Assembly (NCBI RefSeq): GCF_044324875.1
Contig: NZ_CP172185.1
Source: Escherichia coli
GTDB taxonomy: Bacteria > Pseudomonadota > Gammaproteobacteria > Enterobacterales > Enterobacteriaceae
Direction: 5' to 3' (one strand)
DNA: 64,000 nt
The position numbers and the translations under genes were made by a program. Below the pieces are notes generated by a model that had not been told where the DNA came from, made no database searches, and saw only the letters and a program-made list of their open reading frames with translations. Every line of letters starts with the position of its first letter. The first letter of the stretch is position 1. Below, in pieces: positions 2,983 through 10,320 of the stretch.

Positions 2983-3135
2983 GTTATTAACCTCCTAAAG
3001 CCTGGCGATAACACGATAATTTGCAAATCAGATATTTCCAATATCAGCATTTGTTATCAATTTATTCTGCGCTAAGGCAACTGCCTGATAAGGTGTTAAA
3101 GTTATAAAACCCTTCGCATAAAGGAGTTGTACACC

Positions 3136-3906
3136 GTGCCTGGTTTGAAGATTACGCTTTTGCAGCAACCACTGGTGTGGATGGATGGTCCTGCCAACCT
3201 GCGTCATTTTGATCGTCAACTGGAAGATATTACCGGACGCGATGTGATCGTTCTACCGGAGATGTTTACCAGCGGCTTTGCCATGGAAGCGGCAGCTTCG
3301 TCGCTAGCACAAGATGACGTAGTGAACTGGATGACAGCCAAAGCGCAGCAGTGCAATGCGCTGATTGCAGGCAGTGTTGCATTACAAACGGAGTCTGGTT
3401 CGGTTAACCGCTTTTTGCTGGTTGAGCCAGGCGGCACGGTACATTTTTATGATAAGCGTCATCTGTTCCGCATGGCAGATGAGCATCTGCATTATAAAGC
3501 GGGCAATGCGCGAGTGATTGTGGAATGGCGCGGCTGGCGTATTTTGCCGCTGGTGTGCTACGACTTACGTTTTCCTGTGTGGTCGCGCAATCTCAACGAT
3601 TACGACCTCGCCCTGTACGTCGCCAACTGGCCGGCTCCGCGCTCTCTGCACTGGCAGGCATTGCTGACGGCCCGCGCGATTGAGAATCAAGCGTATGTGG
3701 CGGGATGCAATCGCGTCGGCAGCGATGGCAACGGCTGCCATTATCGCGGTGACAGCCGGGTGATTAATCCACAGGGCGAGATTATCGCCACCGCCGACGC
3801 GCATCAGGCAACGCGCATTGATGCGGAGCTGTCGATGGCGGCATTGCGGGAATATAGAGAAAAGTTTCCGGCATGGCGGGATGCGGATGAGTTTAGGTTG
3901 TGGTGA
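3136..3906 (+). CDS. yafV: Nitrilase-family omega-amidase YafV
   Basis: ORF translating [18 protein letters not shown] from GTG 3136, with AAGGAG 9 nt upstream; the ORF track begins at an upstream TTG (3127). Carbon-nitrogen hydrolase-like sequence. Confidence 0.85.
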
Positions 3907-3944
3907 GTGGGTGTTGTGTTTAGGGCCGGGGAGAGTCGGGCTAA

Positions 3945-4160
3945 GACTACGAAAGCCCGCTCCCCTGCGACCACTTTTATCATAGGAGTGTGGAAGCGCT
4001 TTTCCATCAATTGCGATGACGTCTTTATCATTTGATGAATGGCAATCTCGCATCCAGTTAATAAAGCATTCGTGAAATTATACTGAACGGATACAAGACA
4101 TAACTCTAATTATGGTGCCGTGAACAGGATTACCATTTTCAAAATTACGATATTATTTGC
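3945..4160 (-). pseudogene. Internally deleted remnant of an ISAs1-family (H-repeat) transposase gene
   Basis: About 200 nt align at roughly 80 percent identity with 6143-6345 of the intact transposase gene, preceded by a sequence resembling that gene's 3' end (gactacgaaagcccgctcccc versus attacgaaagcccgctcccc at 5379). No intact reading frame. Confidence 0.6.
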
Positions 4161-4177
4161 AGTAATTATGTTATTAA

Positions 4178-4690
4178 TCATTGTGATATTTCCATCTCTG
4201 TGATTAATACCGGATAAGCATTTAATTGCAGAGTTTGCACGAAATTATCGCAGATAACTGGCAATAACAATAACCCATCAGCCCGCTGCTGTAATACCTC
4301 CATTCGTTCTACTGATTCAACATTAACAACCAAACCAAGGGCATTTAGCGATTTAAGGATCTCCAGATGTTCACTCATCCAGCGCAGAGAAAAAGGATCA
4401 TCACCAATTATAAAAACAGGCCCCCAGCCGGTTAATAACTGGCGTTTCATTACGGAGCCAGGATGAAGTCGAGTACATATTACAGGAAATACCCCCTGTT
4501 GCGATGGTTCCGATGATGTGGATAATTCAGAAATATTTTCCATTGTTAGTGAAGAATTAACATCCATTAATAATGGTGAAACAACCTCACTTTCCTTGCT
4601 AGTAATGGCTGCACTAATCTGAAAGGAAAATAACAATATTATTACGTACAAACTTATTTTTAACATAACACATTCAATCCGTTTATTCAT
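4178..4690 (-). CDS. Hypothetical exported protein (N-terminal hydrophobic signal-like segment), AT-rich orphan
   Basis: 170-aa ORF with MLKISLYVIILLFSFQISA near the N-terminus; low-GC codon usage; no recognisable family. Start uncertain (4690 or 4666). Confidence 0.45.
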   Translation of the reverse strand: MNKRIECVMLKISLYVIILLFSFQISAAITSKESEVVSPLLMDVNSSLTMENISELSTSSEPSQQGVFPVICTRLHPGSVMKRQLLTGWGPVFIIGDDPFSLRWMSEHLEILKSLNALGLVVNVESVERMEVLQQRADGLLLLPVICDNFVQTLQLNAYPVLITEMEISQ

Positions 4691-4756
4691 GTTATAGAAT
4701 AATAATGCTATAAATCATCATTAATGTTCAATTATTTAATCACACAATTTAAAAAA

Positions 4757-5260
4757 TCATCGACCAATGTGAATTGGCAATGTACCACTCAAGTTAAAAT
4801 CACTGAATATTTTATCAATTTCTCTTGCAGTTTCTATATATTTAACCTCTTTCGTACTTGCATTATAAATAGCCCAAGCCTCGGGATGGGATGTTCCACC
4901 AAACCTTACAAAAAAACTTGATTTCATATTATTATATAAATTAACATCAGGAAAAGGATCTTCTCCAAAATTAGTAGTATTAAATAATGAAAGTTCGTAT
5001 CGCTTAGAAAATTCTGTTGGTAGGATAGCTTCACTGCCATCAATAGCATTCATCCAGAGTTTGTTACCATTATATTCCAACAATAATCTCTGTTTTGCAT
5101 GTGTCTTATCTCGTTCTTTAACGACAGCGAATACCTTTTTAACAACTTGCTGTGCGGATGGTCCTATTGTATTACCAAAAGCTGGCAACCCGATTTTGCC
5201 ATAAACACTCTCCTGAATGAAATAAATATCCGTTTTATCGGCCTCGACAATATCTACCAT
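4757..5260 (-). CDS. Hypothetical protein, AT-rich orphan
   Basis: 167-aa ORF on the same strand as, and immediately upstream of, the 170-aa ORF; no recognisable motif. Confidence 0.45.
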   Translation of the reverse strand: MVDIVEADKTDIYFIQESVYGKIGLPAFGNTIGPSAQQVVKKVFAVVKERDKTHAKQRLLLEYNGNKLWMNAIDGSEAILPTEFSKRYELSLFNTTNFGEDPFPDVNLYNNMKSSFFVRFGGTSHPEAWAIYNASTKEVKYIETAREIDKIFSDFNLSGTLPIHIGR

Positions 5261-5339
5261 TTATCCCTCCAAACAAGACCTGACTCCAGGACAAGAGCAT
5301 AGTGTGTAGTAAACACTTCATGCTCTTGCCCTGACCATT

Positions 5340-6560
5340 GAAATAACAACTTTCGTTTGTTTACTGTACCAGGGCAAGATTACGAAAGCCCGCTCCCCGC
5401 AAGGACTGACGCCAGGTAGTTTCTGTCCATGGCTGCTTTTCGCATCTTACGTCTTAACCCTGCCTTGAATACCTTATCATTCGTCAAAATATTAATAGCA
5501 ATGTGCCGTATCCCTGAAAATAATTCTGCTGCGTTTCCTCTTCTTATTTTGCAGTCGTCTTCATTCATTACCACGTCCAGACGCCAGTGCAGCTTATTCT
5601 CCACGTGCCAGTGGTTTCGGATTGCTGTGGCGAACTTCTCTGCGGTTAAATCAGCAGAACTGATATAATATCTGACCGTCATTTCGGGCTCTTTCTTTTG
5701 TTCTGCTATTATTGACCGAAAGGAGACTGCCACGCATAATTTCTTCAGACCTTTCCATTCAAACGTGAAATCAATAAGTTCATCAGGGACATCGCAAACA
5801 ATATGAAGACGGATTTCTTCTCTGCCGTGACTCTTTTCACTCATTGCGTAACTGTCATGCTCTGGATTATTTAATTCTTTCAGTGGGAATTTTTCCTCAA
5901 AGGCTTTATTAAGCCGCCCCTGATTTCCTTTTACAGCGAATAAATAATCACCGCCCTGTTTTTGTATCTTCTCTGCAATATCTTTCTGGCAACCCATCGC
6001 ATCAGTTGTGATGATTTTTCCTTTAATATCCAGCATGTTAAGAAGTTCTGGGATAGCTGTAATCTCATTGGATTTCTCATCCGTCTTGATCTGTCCGATG
6101 ACCAGGCTGTGCATTGTTGAGAACGCACTAATGACATGAATCGCTCCCCTGCGGCGACTCTTGTCATAAGAGTGCCGGAGCGTTTTTCCATCAATTGCGA
6201 TGACGTCTTTATCATCTGAAGTATGGCAGTCTCGCATCCAGTTAATAAAGCACTCGTGAAATTTTGCAGGACTGATACAGGATACAACTCTGGCGATGGT
6301 ATCGTGAACAGGAATACCATTTTCAAAATCACCGTATTGTTTTAAAAAATCGAGATGTGTTTCCCCAAAATCCTCTATATCTTCCCAACCTTCTGCACCC
6401 GAAATAACGGCACAAATAGTCAACAGTAGAATATCCGACAATTTATGTTCCACTTTCCAGGCTTGTCTGTAATCGGGAATAACAGAAATATGCTCCATCA
6501 ATTTTTAAGTTCCATTTTGTTCCCCTTAATTATGTAAGGAGTATTTGATCATGTATAAGT
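5340..6560 (-). mobile_element. ISAs1-family (H-repeat) insertion element; ends approximate
   Basis: Contains the intact transposase gene; element termini were not resolved, so boundaries are approximate. Confidence 0.5.
5380..6498 (-). CDS. ISAs1-family transposase (Rhs-associated H-repeat protein)
   Basis: About 372 aa from ATG 6498 (track begins at TTG 6501); sequence [46 protein letters not shown] ... [25 protein letters not shown] is characteristic of H-repeat / ISAs1 transposases. Confidence 0.85.
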
Positions 6561-6725
6561 AATAAAAAACAGCCTCAGGTAATGAGGAATATCTCAAATT
6601 TTAAACATAAAATGCGAATTATTTAGTACAAAAAAGCAGCGTTACGTGATCTTTCCCTGTGCCGGTACCTTTGTCGTTTAATCTGGCAGCTAAAGGCATA
6701 TTGTTTTCCTGTCTGGAATATCAGC

Positions 6726-6780
6726 GACAAAAAATTTAAAAAACGGTAAGGTGCTTAACTCAGTAATAATCACCTTACCG
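6726..6780 (-). terminator. Putative terminator after the cargo operon
   Basis: Inverted repeat cggtaaggtg / caccttaccg followed, on the minus strand, by a T-rich run (ttttttaaatttttt); just downstream of the 336-aa gene stop. Confidence 0.4.
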
Positions 6781-6810
6781 GACATCCTGATTTGTAGCCC
6801 AACAGGTTAA

Positions 6811-7821
6811 TCAAGTAACAGGGATAAACTGACCATCAATCAGCGAAAATACCGGAGCGTAATACCCCATACGCTCTTCACCACTTTCATCTGTAAAACG
6901 GTAAGTCAGTGGGGAATATATTGGTTTCGATTTATTATATAGCTGCACCATACGTCCACCATTCATAACCCGGACGGCATAATCGTCCCACCTGATGGGC
7001 TGCATTCTGGCTTTCCCTCCCTCCACATTATCTTTTGAGAAGAGTGAGAGTAATATGTCATCCTCAGAGTCACCGGTTGTGGCTGACCATGCCTTCAGCG
7101 CCTCTTTGTTATAAGCTTTCAGACGTGCCCTGTCCCGGCTACTGATGATGCTTGCCATTTCGGTATAGGCGGCTTTTAACTTCCGTAACTGCTCGTCGCT
7201 TCCGGTATAGGGGGTTGCCCGCGTCCAGGCCCATTCAGGAAGCCCTGTCACGGTAACTTTTTGAGTGAACTGATACACCTTCATCCCTTTCGGGAAATAG
7301 GTTTCATCAAAATAATCTGGATCAATAAATCCTGGCTCCGCCTGCTCAGCCAAAATCTCTTTCCGGATAACGGGATGCACGCTGTCTGGCCGGGCTTCAG
7401 GTATGCCCTGCTGGTTGATGGTCACTTTTATTGAAGAAAGCAGCGTTTCCTCCTGTTTAATAAAACGAACCAAATCCAGGCTGCATCCTGCTTTTGGAAA
7501 AAAACGCCCCCGTTCTTCCATACTGGCAGGCTTGTCAGAAAACCATCCTAATGCCCCAATCTCCAGACTGATTTCATTTTCTCCATTCGCCATCAGCATC
7601 ATGGCATTGGTGCTGGATATGGCCCCGGTTGAATCACCATTTGCCCGCCAGGCACTTCTTCGGTTACTGAACCCGAGGACGCCATTAGTCTTAATGGCAC
7701 AATATGACTCTTCAATATTAAACTTACTGCGAATTTTTTGCTGGTTATCGTTAGAGCAAAATCCAGTTCCCATAACAACTCCTGACAGTAAAATAACCGA
7801 TATTAAATGTTTTGCCTTCAT
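6811..7821 (-). CDS. Signal-peptide protein, candidate immunity protein of the vgrG-linked cargo module
   Basis: 336-aa ORF starting MKAKHLISVILLSGVVMGTGFC (Sec-type signal, possible lipoprotein); last gene of the vgrG-adaptor-effector operon; AT-rich. The ORF is confident; the function is inferred from position only. Confidence 0.55.
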   Translation of the reverse strand: MKAKHLISVILLSGVVMGTGFCSNDNQQKIRSKFNIEESYCAIKTNGVLGFSNRRSAWRANGDSTGAISSTNAMMLMANGENEISLEIGALGWFSDKPASMEERGRFFPKAGCSLDLVRFIKQEETLLSSIKVTINQQGIPEARPDSVHPVIRKEILAEQAEPGFIDPDYFDETYFPKGMKVYQFTQKVTVTGLPEWAWTRATPYTGSDEQLRKLKAAYTEMASIISSRDRARLKAYNKEALKAWSATTGDSEDDILLSLFSKDNVEGGKARMQPIRWDDYAVRVMNGGRMVQLYNKSKPIYSPLTYRFTDESGEERMGYYAPVFSLIDGQFIPVT

Positions 7822-7887
7822 AATTATTCTCTCTCAAAAGGGGAAAATACTCATTATACTGTTCACTTTTAATTTCTGTAATATCAC

Positions 7888-9459
7888 TTAATAATCCATA
7901 CCTATCGTCCACGTTGTCACTGGCTTCGGCGGTGTTACTTTTTTCTCCACAGTGCGTTCTTTACCGTATAAATTAACCCGTAATGGTGAATCCTTTACCT
8001 CCATAGGATCACATAACTGCCACTCAACGGTATCTTTCTTCTCAGGTTTTTCGCTCTTTTCCTTCCCCTTTCCTTTTTCATCAACTTCACCATGAGACAC
8101 ATCAATCTTAAATTCAAACTTCCCTTTAATGCCGTCATGAAATAATGCTAGGTCCAGTCCGTCATCATGTGAATCAAATCCAAATCCAGCTTTCGCTTCT
8201 ATAGAGGCAGTCGCTTCGGCGGTCAGTTGTACAACAAAAACATTCGCCTCAAACGTCGCACTCACCACACCTTTTAAACCGAGCTTGATGTTACTTTCCT
8301 TTACATTAAACTCCCATTTTTTATCCTTTTCAGCGTATACTGCGCCAAGATCAAGATTAATCTCCGCTGAAATCTCGATATAGCATTCAACACTGGCTCC
8401 GTTTTTACGGAGATATTCACGACATCTGTTGACCAATGACTCGACTTTACAATATGCACATATAAATGAAATAATATCGAATCTGAACGACGCTTCAAAA
8501 AATGGGGCACCAAACAAACCATAAAAATGACAGGGGCCATCCTGGATATCGGTATATTGATAGGCATACGATATACCCAGTTTAACGGGTTCTATTTTTG
8601 CACTGAACAATGCATATTTGCGCGTACCATTATTATTGTCAGGATCTGGCGCAAAATATTTATTGACATTCTTGACCAGAGAGTCAATTCTTCCTATCTG
8701 TTCCAGTTGCTTTGTTTGTCGAAGTTTTTTTATCTCTTTTTCATATTCACTTGTGTGTTCAACATTAGCTATTTTTACGCCAAAATCGACAGTCAGGGAA
8801 GTCTTGTTTATCCACTCAAACTCAGCAGTGGTATTTGTCCAGCCGCTACGGAGTTTATTTTTATCCCTGGGCTTGGTGTTCTCCATTGCGTCCCTGGCTT
8901 TTATTCTTTCGTCACGCCGCTCTTTTACTGTTCTCGTCTGTTTTGATGACGAAATCTCATAGCTGAACCCTGTAGTAAACCTAATTTCCACTGTAGGATA
9001 AACATCAATTTCAACATAATTGCCACATTCGTAACAACTGTCAATTCTGACTGAATAATGGGCAGGTTCATAATGATTCTTAAGTGGAGAGGATATTGCC
9101 CCCAAATAATCCCATGGTACTCGAAATGTACCCATAGCAATTATTTCACCTTCAGACAAGTTATCATCCAAAGTGACCTTATTAGGTATTCCGAAAGGTT
9201 GCAGTATCTTATGATTATTTTCTGATTCTTCCTCTAACCATGCCTCATGTGTTCCACTTTTATCGCACTGGTAGGTAATGGTAATTATACCATCACATCC
9301 GGAACCATCATCCAGTAGCTTAAAACGCGCCACTCCTTCTTTTGACCAGAAATGTTTCTCGCCGGCCTCTGGAAAATCACTAATAACATCAAAAATACAT
9401 GGATCAGGAATGCCGCATTCCACACAGGGCTTTCCGGCTGTCGAAGATGGAGATGTCAT
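7888..9459 (-). CDS. Candidate T6SS cargo effector of unknown activity
   Basis: 523-aa ORF directly downstream of the DUF4123 adaptor; no signal peptide; about 13 cysteines including three C-x-x-C pairs (C12/C15, C142/C145, C334/C337); lysine-rich C-terminus; no G-x-S-x-G lipase motif found by eye. The ORF is confident; the function is inferred. Confidence 0.55.
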   Translation of the reverse strand: MTSPSSTAGKPCVECGIPDPCIFDVISDFPEAGEKHFWSKEGVARFKLLDDGSGCDGIITITYQCDKSGTHEAWLEEESENNHKILQPFGIPNKVTLDDNLSEGEIIAMGTFRVPWDYLGAISSPLKNHYEPAHYSVRIDSCYECGNYVEIDVYPTVEIRFTTGFSYEISSSKQTRTVKERRDERIKARDAMENTKPRDKNKLRSGWTNTTAEFEWINKTSLTVDFGVKIANVEHTSEYEKEIKKLRQTKQLEQIGRIDSLVKNVNKYFAPDPDNNNGTRKYALFSAKIEPVKLGISYAYQYTDIQDGPCHFYGLFGAPFFEASFRFDIISFICAYCKVESLVNRCREYLRKNGASVECYIEISAEINLDLGAVYAEKDKKWEFNVKESNIKLGLKGVVSATFEANVFVVQLTAEATASIEAKAGFGFDSHDDGLDLALFHDGIKGKFEFKIDVSHGEVDEKGKGKEKSEKPEKKDTVEWQLCDPMEVKDSPLRVNLYGKERTVEKKVTPPKPVTTWTIGMDY

Positions 9460-9480
9460 ATAATCTATCCGTTTGTCTTT

Positions 9481-10320
9481 TTATTGTGGGATAAATCCCA
9501 GTTCCTGTTGTGCAAGTTCATGTACCCGAATATGTCCCGGGTATGACTGATTGCTGAGTTGTTCATACCAGTCATCCGGAATATATCTGAGATCGATTAT
9601 ATTTTTTTTCAGTAATATAAGCGTCATTGTTCTGACGGAACGATCATCTGCTATATTTAATGACTGGCAAAAAGAGAAATAATCTTCTGCCAGAATTCGG
9701 GATGATTCAGCTTTTGATGAATCATCCCATCCGTTTTTATCTACATTTTCTTCGATAAATGCAGATAATATATCAAGATAATTATCCCGTGCCTTTCGTT
9801 CCAGTTGGCTATATTGTCTGTAACTCAGCGTCAGTTGTGATGGCCGTTCTGCCCTTATATTCATAGTTTCTGCGGGACGGACGGAAGAAAAATTATCCTC
9901 ACGACATTCTTCACCATAACGGGTACTTAGCTGTCTGACGGGACTGATAAAAGAAAGACGCTGGCGGGGGGTCAGAACTTCCACTAATACCCATATATTC
10001 CGGGGATCATAAAATCGCATGAGAACAGGTTTCTCCTGTTCGGGGATCCTAACCCACAGATAACGTCTGAAGTGTTGCTGTAGCTCACGCATGGATGACT
10101 CAGAAGTCAGATATATTCCCCATGGCGACGCCTTAACACTCAGCCATGCTTCAACCTCCGGAACGACTTCCACGAGATAGGGGGCTAGCGCGACCAGATC
10201 CAGTTGTATGGGTTCTGCATACAGACAACAGTGCGGGGGATTCACCTCGTTCAGAAAATCCAGCAATCCTTCCTCCACAGCGCCATCCACAATGGCGTAC
10301 TGCACGGGTGCCGTTTCCAT
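9481..10320 (-). CDS. T6SS adaptor/chaperone, DUF4123 (Tap) family
   Basis: About 279 aa with N-terminal YAIVDGA and LMRFYDPR motifs typical of DUF4123 adaptors; ATG at 10320 overlaps the vgrG TGA stop (TGATG). Confidence 0.7.
   Translation of the reverse strand: METAPVQYAIVDGAVEEGLLDFLNEVNPPHCCLYAEPIQLDLVALAPYLVEVVPEVEAWLSVKASPWGIYLTSESSMRELQQHFRRYLWVRIPEQEKPVLMRFYDPRNIWVLVEVLTPRQRLSFISPVRQLSTRYGEECREDNFSSVRPAETMNIRAERPSQLTLSYRQYSQLERKARDNYLDILSAFIEENVDKNGWDDSSKAESSRILAEDYFSFCQSLNIADDRSVRTMTLILLKKNIIDLRYIPDDWYEQLSNQSYPGHIRVHELAQQELGFIPQ

Follow-up and report, generated by a model that had tools for sequence, protein, structure and literature searches.

The window analyzed here is a stretch of 64,000 nucleotides (nt) of Escherichia coli DNA (NCBI RefSeq assembly GCF_044324875.1, contig NZ_CP172185.1), and our subject is a 1.1-kb AT-rich segment beside yafV that holds two small open reading frames (ORFs), ORF1 and ORF2. 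An earlier note, made from the letters of the window alone, had singled out these ORFs and proposed that they might be an orphan or degraded effector-immunity pair at the end of a type VI secretion system (T6SS) island. We give about an even chance to the reading that the segment is a conserved mosaic relic, in which ORF2, an orphaned member of an effector family, stands beside ORF1, a conjugation gene that has either been exapted or has hitch-hiked. The two ORFs lie on the minus strand exactly where the note had put them, and the features of the segment are:

4178-4690, minus strand: ORF1, 170 amino acids (aa); RefSeq begins the gene at Met9 (4178-4666, 162 aa).
4691-4756: the ORF2-ORF1 spacer, 66 nt, with a GC content of 0.167.
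4757-5260, minus strand: ORF2, 167 aa, an Escherichia-specific, internally shortened member of an undescribed, β-rich family of ~190-aa proteins that is a candidate T6SS cargo-effector family.

The strong AT richness that the note had remarked on is plain in both genes, the GC content being 0.376 for ORF1 and 0.347 for ORF2, versus 0.516 for the window and 0.55-0.56 for yafV and fadE.

What is ORF1? The earlier note recognized neither ORF, but ORF1 has a clear family. It matches NCBIfam TIGR03765 with 120.6 bits (cut-off 59.75; E 2.2e-35) over model positions 1-105 of 105, and Pfam PF11072 (DUF2859) with E 2.4e-28, and RefSeq names it 'integrating conjugative element protein'. The signal-like hydrophobic N-terminus described in the note is found at residues 1-24 of the Met9 form, where the hydropathy is that of a Sec-type signal peptide and the hydrophobic stretch is followed by ISA/A. 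The nearest relatives outside Escherichia, found by tblastn, have 33-44% identity to ORF1, and are carried by plasmids of the mating-pair-formation type MPF_G in Erwinia, Pantoea, Pseudomonas, Klebsiella, Vibrio and other hosts. On one of these plasmids, pEB102, the genes run PilL - DUF2275 - TIGR03759 - lytic transglycosylase - DUF2859 - restriction endonuclease - TraD - TIGR03747. A CxxC motif is absent from ORF1, and the pEB102 homologue lacks cysteine altogether. A thioredoxin-like fold is suggested for the family by the literature on the homologue Orf71178 of the integrating conjugative element (ICE) ICEclc, which has an SPI signal peptide and is predicted to be thioredoxin-like, and whose deletion lowers ICEclc transfer only in part (PMC10018362). 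A cargo hotspot adjoins DUF2859 in islands of the PAPI-1 type (PMC12629846).

ORF1 resembles the ICEclc and pEB102 proteins in its whole-domain match to the hidden Markov model, its signal peptide, and the motifs FIIGDD, GL(V/I)VNVES (GLVVNVES in both ORF1 and the pEB102 homologue) and YPVLIT. It differs from them in its surroundings, as there is no type IV secretion system (T4SS) around it, ORF2 lies upstream in place of a VirB1-like lytic transglycosylase gene, and no TraD gene lies downstream. The window flanks of ORF1 contain no T4SS gene and no other ICE gene; the neighbors are ORF2, the insertion sequence (IS) ISEc1, an ISAs1-family remnant and yafV. Because clustering with T4SS genes is a feature of context, the family membership of ORF1 stands despite the missing MPF_G cluster. 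Judged by its sequence, ORF1 is a DUF2859 (PFL_4695) accessory protein of the ICEclc/PAPI-1-type (MPF_G) conjugation systems that has been stranded without a T4SS; it is an ordinary family member in an unusual place. No immunity role for DUF2859 is recorded in the literature that we searched.

ORF2 is a different matter, as here the note's failure to recognize the protein is shared by the libraries. Neither ORF2 nor its family is matched in Pfam (run on all 20 of 20 family members), NCBIfam, PHROGs or PADLOC, and ORF2 and its full-length relatives carry no toxin domain or effector marker among those sought (MIX, FIX, PAAR, Rhs and the Pfam toxins). A word-indexed search with ORF2 returned E. 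coli proteins only. A HMMER scan of 1.84 billion representatives returned 31 homologues at E≤1e-3, mostly of ~190 aa and 30-40% identical to ORF2, which by cluster membership belong to Serratia, Morganella and Pantoea. A Foldseek search of AFDB50 added Cedecea, Citrobacter, Yersinia, Enterobacter, Siccibacter, Burkholderia, Trinickia, Marinobacterium and Halopseudomonas, and its matches at E≤1e-3 include no protein of known function, all being uncharacterized or uninformatively named. The AlphaFold2 (AF2) model of ORF2 is β-rich, with a pLDDT of 84.9, and the family has no fold match in the PDB. The homology and structure searches that the earlier note had called for have in this way placed ORF1 in a conjugation family and given ORF2 a set of relatives, without a known fold.

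In comparison with these relatives ORF2 is altered. Both of the Escherichia alleles described below lack an internal segment of ~30 residues that the family keeps, and which forms helix 59-72 plus a short strand in the model of the Serratia protein. The Escherichia proteins are acidic, with a pI of 5.3-5.9 versus ~9.2 in the family; they retain E16, which the family conserves, along with its GxDPxP...LY and GG motifs. From the alignments we place ORF2 in an undescribed family, as a branch confined to Escherichia that is internally shortened and acidic; no library or paper among those searched names the family. The idea that ORF2 might be a lysozyme or soluble lytic transglycosylase (SLT) arose from its ES...AxYN motifs and from the SLT gene that precedes DUF2859 in ICEs; it is ruled out by an hhalign probability of 0.6% against the pEB102 transglycosylase and by the β-rich AF2 model. 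Among 72,556 plasmids, tblastn with ORF2 gave two hits, both in records typed as non-mobilizable that carry chromosomal genes, and no relative in a conjugative or mobilizable record.

What might such a family do? Every homologue outside Escherichia with a readable flank adjoins a gene for a small protein with multiple transmembrane (TM) helices, typically four (4-TM), and never a DUF2859 gene. The closest non-Escherichia relative (P0028, 40% identity) begins 16 nt after an orphan hcp, and its end is overlapped by a convergent 145-aa multi-TM ORF. Another homologue, P0038, directly follows tssB-tssC inside a T6SS core cluster; next comes a 4-TM gene of 145 aa, and then an array encoding proteins with signal peptides and a Cys/His amidase-like protein, before tagJ-tssE-tssF. 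In Serratia, Pantoea, Morganella and several metagenomic contigs the homologue is one of two or three genes in an islet; a 4-TM gene of 135-157 aa lies downstream, the stop and start codons often overlapping, and usually a DUF805 gene is next. Erwinia rhapontici, Yersinia pekkanenii and Salmonella hold the subfamily nearest to that of E. coli; their family gene is followed by a multi-TM gene in convergent orientation, and in Yersinia and Salmonella the family gene is split or truncated. The 4-TM partner proteins share only 23-32% identity. A search for related loci with a five-sequence alignment gave 9 loci, and the same search with P0028 alone gave none.

This is how one would expect the genes of a small cargo effector and of an integral-membrane immunity protein to be arranged. 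Because the T6SS link of the family is based on two physical linkages and on the position of the Escherichia genes, it is a link that we infer from context. The family probably targets a membrane, since its context resembles that of Hcp-borne cargo neutralized by a 4-TM inner-membrane immunity protein. The closest parallel that we know in these respects is the pore-forming Ssp4 of Serratia marcescens and its immunity protein Sip4, which has 4 TM helices. The full-length members of the ORF2 family are like Ssp4-Sip4 in size class, in their orphan two- or three-gene islets, in their 4-TM partner, and in their occasional placement by hcp or in a T6SS cluster. They differ in that Ssp4 consists of 13 α-helices and the ORF2 family is β-rich, with no relationship in sequence or fold; E. 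coli ORF2 moreover has no 4-TM partner, a DUF2859 gene standing where it would be, and secretion and toxicity are only predicted for the ORF2 family. The Serratia homologue, of 21.9 kDa with its partner gene downstream, is not one of the known effectors with which we compared it: Ssp4 is α-helical and encoded in the ilv locus, Ssp3/Tfe1 has a mass of 20.6 kDa and an upstream immunity gene, and Ssp6 has a mass of 24.5 kDa.

Two loci deserve more detail. In a metagenomic T6SS core cluster (L023, 7001-12062) the run of genes between tssC and tagJ looks like a dense effector-immunity array: the ORF2-family gene and a 4-TM gene are accompanied there by several genes for proteins with signal peptides, by one for a 126-aa protein resembling Cys/His amidases, and by one for a 275-aa protein whose C-terminus is a glycine-rich hydrophobic tail. 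In one strain of Pantoea agglomerans (L017, 3663-4906) an orphan islet of a Tlde1-domain gene, an 86-aa gene and hcp lies ~3 kb from an ORF2-like/4-TM/DUF805 module; the islet is absent from two other P. agglomerans strains that keep the module. No link of DUF805 to T6SS immunity was found in the literature searched.

Are ORF1 and ORF2 genes at all, rather than chance ORFs? The note had recommended comparison with the same interval of other E. coli genomes, and the comparison settles the matter in favor of real genes. A second E. coli allele, found in 12 of 5426 complete genomes, has both frames open, with 68% aa identity for ORF2 and 75% for ORF1, and keeps the ORF2-ORF1 order beside an ISAs1 copy and yafV; the gap between the genes is 66-90 nt. 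Between the alleles the ratio of nonsynonymous to synonymous substitution (dN/dS) is 0.32 for ORF2 (dS 0.57) and 0.32 for ORF1 (dS 0.42), with a Fisher p of ~1e-6 for each, and because these ratios depart significantly from neutrality, both have been under selection as protein-coding genes. The corresponding values for yafV are a dN/dS of 0.13 and a dS of 0.076; by this measure the ORF2 and ORF1 alleles are far older than the flanking core gene. The pair is also found in E. whittamii, with ISAs1 sequences on both sides.

The rare allele has no upstream IS; three genes stand there ahead of the pair, encoding a 327/342-aa protein, a 411-aa TIGR02270-like protein (a partial match) and a 137-aa thioredoxin-like protein that is cytoplasmic and has a WCNNC motif (the operon is at 6931-9576 of L003 and at 15956-18646 of L027). 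Fusions of TIGR02270 to candidate T6SS adaptors have been reported (PMC7714669). The thioredoxin-like gene was considered as the ICE gene TIGR03759, an identity that would have made ORF2 a VirB1 replacement inside an ICE fragment; this is ruled out, there being no similarity and the protein being cytoplasmic with a WCNNC motif. In strain ET350 the rare-allele block ends a long VgrG/PAAR/HNH effector array.

The distribution of the segment is patchy, and it speaks of decay. Some part of it is present in 758 of the 5426 genomes, and both genes are present in 541 (~10%), including the extraintestinal and avian pathogenic strains UTI89, UM146 and APEC O18 and the enteroaggregative strain 042. In ~200 genomes ORF2 is absent and ORF1 is cut to a piece annotated as 66 aa, with other insertions beside it. 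Among ten examined sequences that carry both genes, ORF1 is intact in all ten, while ORF2 has a nonsense mutation in one (L021), a 1-nt deletion in two (L022 and L032), and an IS1B insertion in another (L033): at least three independent lesions. The word 'degraded' in the earlier note is apt for ORF2, given its internal deletion of ~30 aa and its recurrent inactivation. In the IS1B case (L033, 2091-3838; clinical isolate 127, Spain) blaOXA-48 is adjacent to the insertion that truncates ORF2. In NE88 (L002) and EC93 (L010), which carry the ORF1 fragment, the neighbors are an IS630 pseudogene (annotated in NE88), two helix-turn-helix regulators, and a very large repeat or immunoglobulin-like protein. 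The EC93 'plasmid' record pCP127, which has the ORF1 fragment, also holds chromosomal fadE-ivy-yafV.

What sequence of events might account for such a segment? In the mosaic-relic scenario, ORF2 would descend from a small (~190 aa, pI ~9.2), β-rich family that behaves, by its context, like Hcp-borne T6SS cargo. The Escherichia branch would have lost the helix-containing segment of ~30 residues, turned acidic, and lost the gene for its 4-TM partner, of which no remnant is present in the spacer at 4691-4756, and it would now be undergoing repeated inactivation. ORF1 would be a periplasmic DUF2859 protein, a thioredoxin-like accessory component that was stranded without its T4SS and kept intact. 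The family assignments, gene contexts, selection, lesions and IS flanks behind this scenario are shown; beyond them, the ORF2 family would be one of T6SS effectors, with the Escherichia copy attenuated or orphaned, and ORF1 would persist through exaptation or hitch-hiking rather than as a classical cognate immunity protein. As for the effector-immunity pair proposed in the earlier note, the linkage of ORF2 relatives to T6SS genes and to genes for small membrane proteins supports the half that concerns ORF2; nothing shows ORF1 to be an immunity partner.

Several observations weigh against the relic scenario. That ORF2-family members are secreted by a T6SS or are toxic is suggested by gene context, and T6SS genes are physically joined to the family gene at only 2 of ~14 independent non-Escherichia loci; at 8 non-Escherichia genome loci, with flanks of up to 8 kb on each side, there is no T6SS core gene. 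Within E. coli, one strain with the rare allele (L003) carries the pair with no T6SS within 10 kb. The two deep alleles and E. whittamii all keep ORF2 and ORF1 adjacent, which, like the purifying selection on both genes, would suit a two-gene unit that still works, and the retention of ORF1 where ORF2 has been lost is the pattern expected of an immunity gene.

The surroundings of the pair bear on all of this. The window is from E. coli, and positions 3900-5400 are 99.9% identical to the sequence of enteroaggregative strain 042. Reading away from the pair, the other features are:

5265-5270, minus strand: Shine-Dalgarno sequence GGAGGG, lying 4 nt ahead of the ORF2 start codon ATG, as the letters themselves show.
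5287-5333: imperfect hairpin with 21-nt arms, 81% complementary, and a 5-nt loop, between the end of ISEc1 and the ORF2 ribosome binding site.
5380-6516, minus strand: intact transposase gene of ISEc1 (ISAs1 family), upstream of ORF2 (NF033564, E 1.6e-125; RefSeq WP_000420764.1 in 042).
3943-4158, minus strand: ISAs1-family (H-repeat) remnant without a 5' part, abutting yafV; a RefSeq pseudogene in E. coli 042.
6811-7821, minus strand: 336-aa lipoprotein-like candidate immunity protein.
7888-9459, minus strand: 523-aa candidate effector without a Pfam or NCBIfam match.
9481-10323, minus strand: DUF4123/Tla1-like chaperone (NF053803, E 4.5e-10, below the cut-off).
10320-12278, minus strand: vgrG of the T6SS-1 cargo operon.
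12499-13017, minus strand: hcp of the T6SS-1 cargo operon.

The order on the one strand is therefore hcp-vgrG-chaperone-523aa-336aa-ISEc1-ORF2-ORF1-ISAs1 remnant-yafV, and the earlier note was correct in placing the pair at the distal end of the T6SS island: it lies at the yafV-side end of the T6SS-1 cargo operon, co-oriented with hcp, vgrG and the chaperone, effector and lipoprotein genes. The genes that follow vgrG, at 6811-10323, are probably uncharacterized T6SS-1 effector-immunity cargo. In other strains DUF2169-Cpe1-Cpi1 occupies this position. The cargo beside the pair varies, being Cpe1/Cpi1 in two of the genomes with ORF2 lesions (L021 and L022) and an HNH/PAAR array in ET350. No published treatment of the yafV-side genes of the island was found in the literature searched.

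Orphan or degenerate effector-immunity cassettes occur at the distal ends of T6SS vgrG/hcp islands. The pair is like these cassettes in its position after a vgrG-chaperone-effector-immunity module, in being AT-rich, IS-flanked and patchily distributed, and in having an effector-like gene that is decaying beside a downstream gene that is kept. It differs from them in that the kept gene belongs to a conjugation-system family, and to no described immunity family.

The IS flanks are as the note had described them, an intact ISAs1/H-repeat gene on one side and a degenerate copy on the other. The remnant is an internal piece of the transposase gene (3958-4158, 84% identical to 6142-6342) fused to the IS 3' end (3943-3965, 96% identical to 5376-5398, as direct repeats). 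The note had further invoked the classical link of H-repeats to Rhs loci, and this part fails: the region 3900-6800 has no ORF for an Rhs core (YD repeats) or an Rhs C-terminal tip, and its family matches are limited to the ISAs1 transposase and DUF2859. In comparison with known ISAs1/H-repeat elements (ISEc1, and the yafF-type remnants beside yafV), the flanks are ordinary copies from the ISAs1 family; Rhs elements play no part, and the IS copies do not belong to the function of the two genes. The hairpin at 5287-5333 may be a structure of the IS end, or it may act as a terminator insulating ORF2. No Rfam family is matched in 3000-7000, and a scan for promoters and terminators gave no signal above shuffled expectation. 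The second ISAs1 copy that 042 carries between ISEc1 and the 336-aa gene, and which is there split by a group II intron (ltrA), is missing from the window at 6517-6810 (compared at L001, 8617-12115), and because it is missing, the window strain must be close but not identical to 042.

How do other explanations fare? One would think first of a functional orphan T6SS-1 effector-immunity pair, in which ORF2 is cargo that acts in the periplasm or on the membrane, and DUF2859 was recruited from a conjugative element as a periplasmic immunity protein or partner to replace the ancestral 4-TM protein. The two genes, close together on one strand at the distal end of T6SS cargo arrays, are held together in both alleles and in E. 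whittamii under the same dN/dS. ORF2 has a strong GGAGGG ribosome binding site, ORF1 is intact wherever ORF2 is broken, as an orphan immunity gene would be, and the identity of only 33-44% to ICE and plasmid DUF2859 proteins argues for a long residence outside T4SSs. We nevertheless think such a pair rather unlikely, as DUF2859 adjoins no other ORF2-family gene and has no recorded immunity role, ORF2 has lost a family-conserved segment and shifted its charge, and ORF1 too is truncated in the ~200 genomes noted above. A bolder version makes the ORF2 family a new family of T6SS cargo effectors, with an unseen fold and an inner-membrane target, neutralized by the 4-TM protein with or without DUF805, and has the Escherichia derivative work with, or be neutralized by, the captured DUF2859; this whole we regard as doubtful. 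The opposite possibility is that the family is not one of toxins, the ORF2-like/4-TM/DUF805 genes being a membrane-associated module of other function whose T6SS adjacency is coincidental, and the E. coli pair unrelated leftovers. Most homologue loci are indeed not beside T6SS genes, and the distribution has a core-like look, the module being at a fixed chromosomal site in several P. agglomerans strains and the Serratia protein on hundreds of contigs. No toxin domain or catalytic signature is recognized, and the published table of the S. marcescens Db10 T6SS-dependent secretome has no 21.9-kDa protein, though Db10 was not checked for the gene. This explanation must however make coincidences of the homologue 16 nt after hcp, of the one between tssC and a candidate effector/immunity array in a core cluster, and of the E. 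coli copies at T6SS island ends in two different allele contexts; the fast-evolving 4-TM partners and the decay of the toxin-like genes in Yersinia and Salmonella are, moreover, typical of effector-immunity modules. We judge it improbable.

It is also conceivable that both genes are debris of a decayed MPF_G ICE, ORF1 being a T4SS gene and ORF2 adjacent cargo, with no relation to T6SS. ORF1 is a hallmark protein of ICEs, PAPI-1-type islands have a cargo hotspot next to DUF2859 (PMC12629846), and the segment is AT-rich and IS-flanked. Yet in true elements the gene upstream of DUF2859 is that of a VirB1-like transglycosylase, unlike ORF2; the relatives of ORF2 are chromosomal and T6SS-linked, and absent from conjugative and mobilizable plasmids; and the window flanks yield no further ICE or T4SS gene, so that debris of this kind seems quite improbable. 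Least likely of all is that the pair is passenger cargo of an ISAs1 composite transposon inserted beside yafV. ISAs1 sequences of the same orientation do lie on both sides, as also in E. whittamii, but the yafV-side copy is an internally deleted fragment without a 5' end, the upstream copy on the ISEc1 side is frameshifted in most genomes examined, and the rare allele does without the upstream IS. The pair is found at the yafV locus only, its few 'plasmid' hits being chromosomal yafV regions, and no IS-ORF2-ORF1-IS unit was seen at other genomic sites.

What does the segment mean? It offers a lead rather than a discovery within E. coli: the ORF2 family is unannotated, and has a confidently predicted fold that is so far unmatched. 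The E. coli genes themselves are probably decaying, and the locus illustrates how modules accumulate and erode at the ends of T6SS islands. The family recurs in Burkholderia and across the Enterobacterales (Serratia, Morganella, Pantoea, Erwinia, Yersinia, Salmonella, Citrobacter, Enterobacter, Cedecea), and its system is probably of a known kind, in which a membrane immunity protein accompanies a T6SS cargo effector. Should its members prove to be effectors that target a membrane, one more family would join a list that is still short, and Serratia or Pantoea would offer an easy test system. A puzzle is posed by ORF1: why is a conjugation accessory gene kept intact in such a place, under purifying selection? 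If DUF2859 serves with ORF2, this would be the first DUF2859 function outside conjugation, a T4SS part exapted into T6SS warfare.

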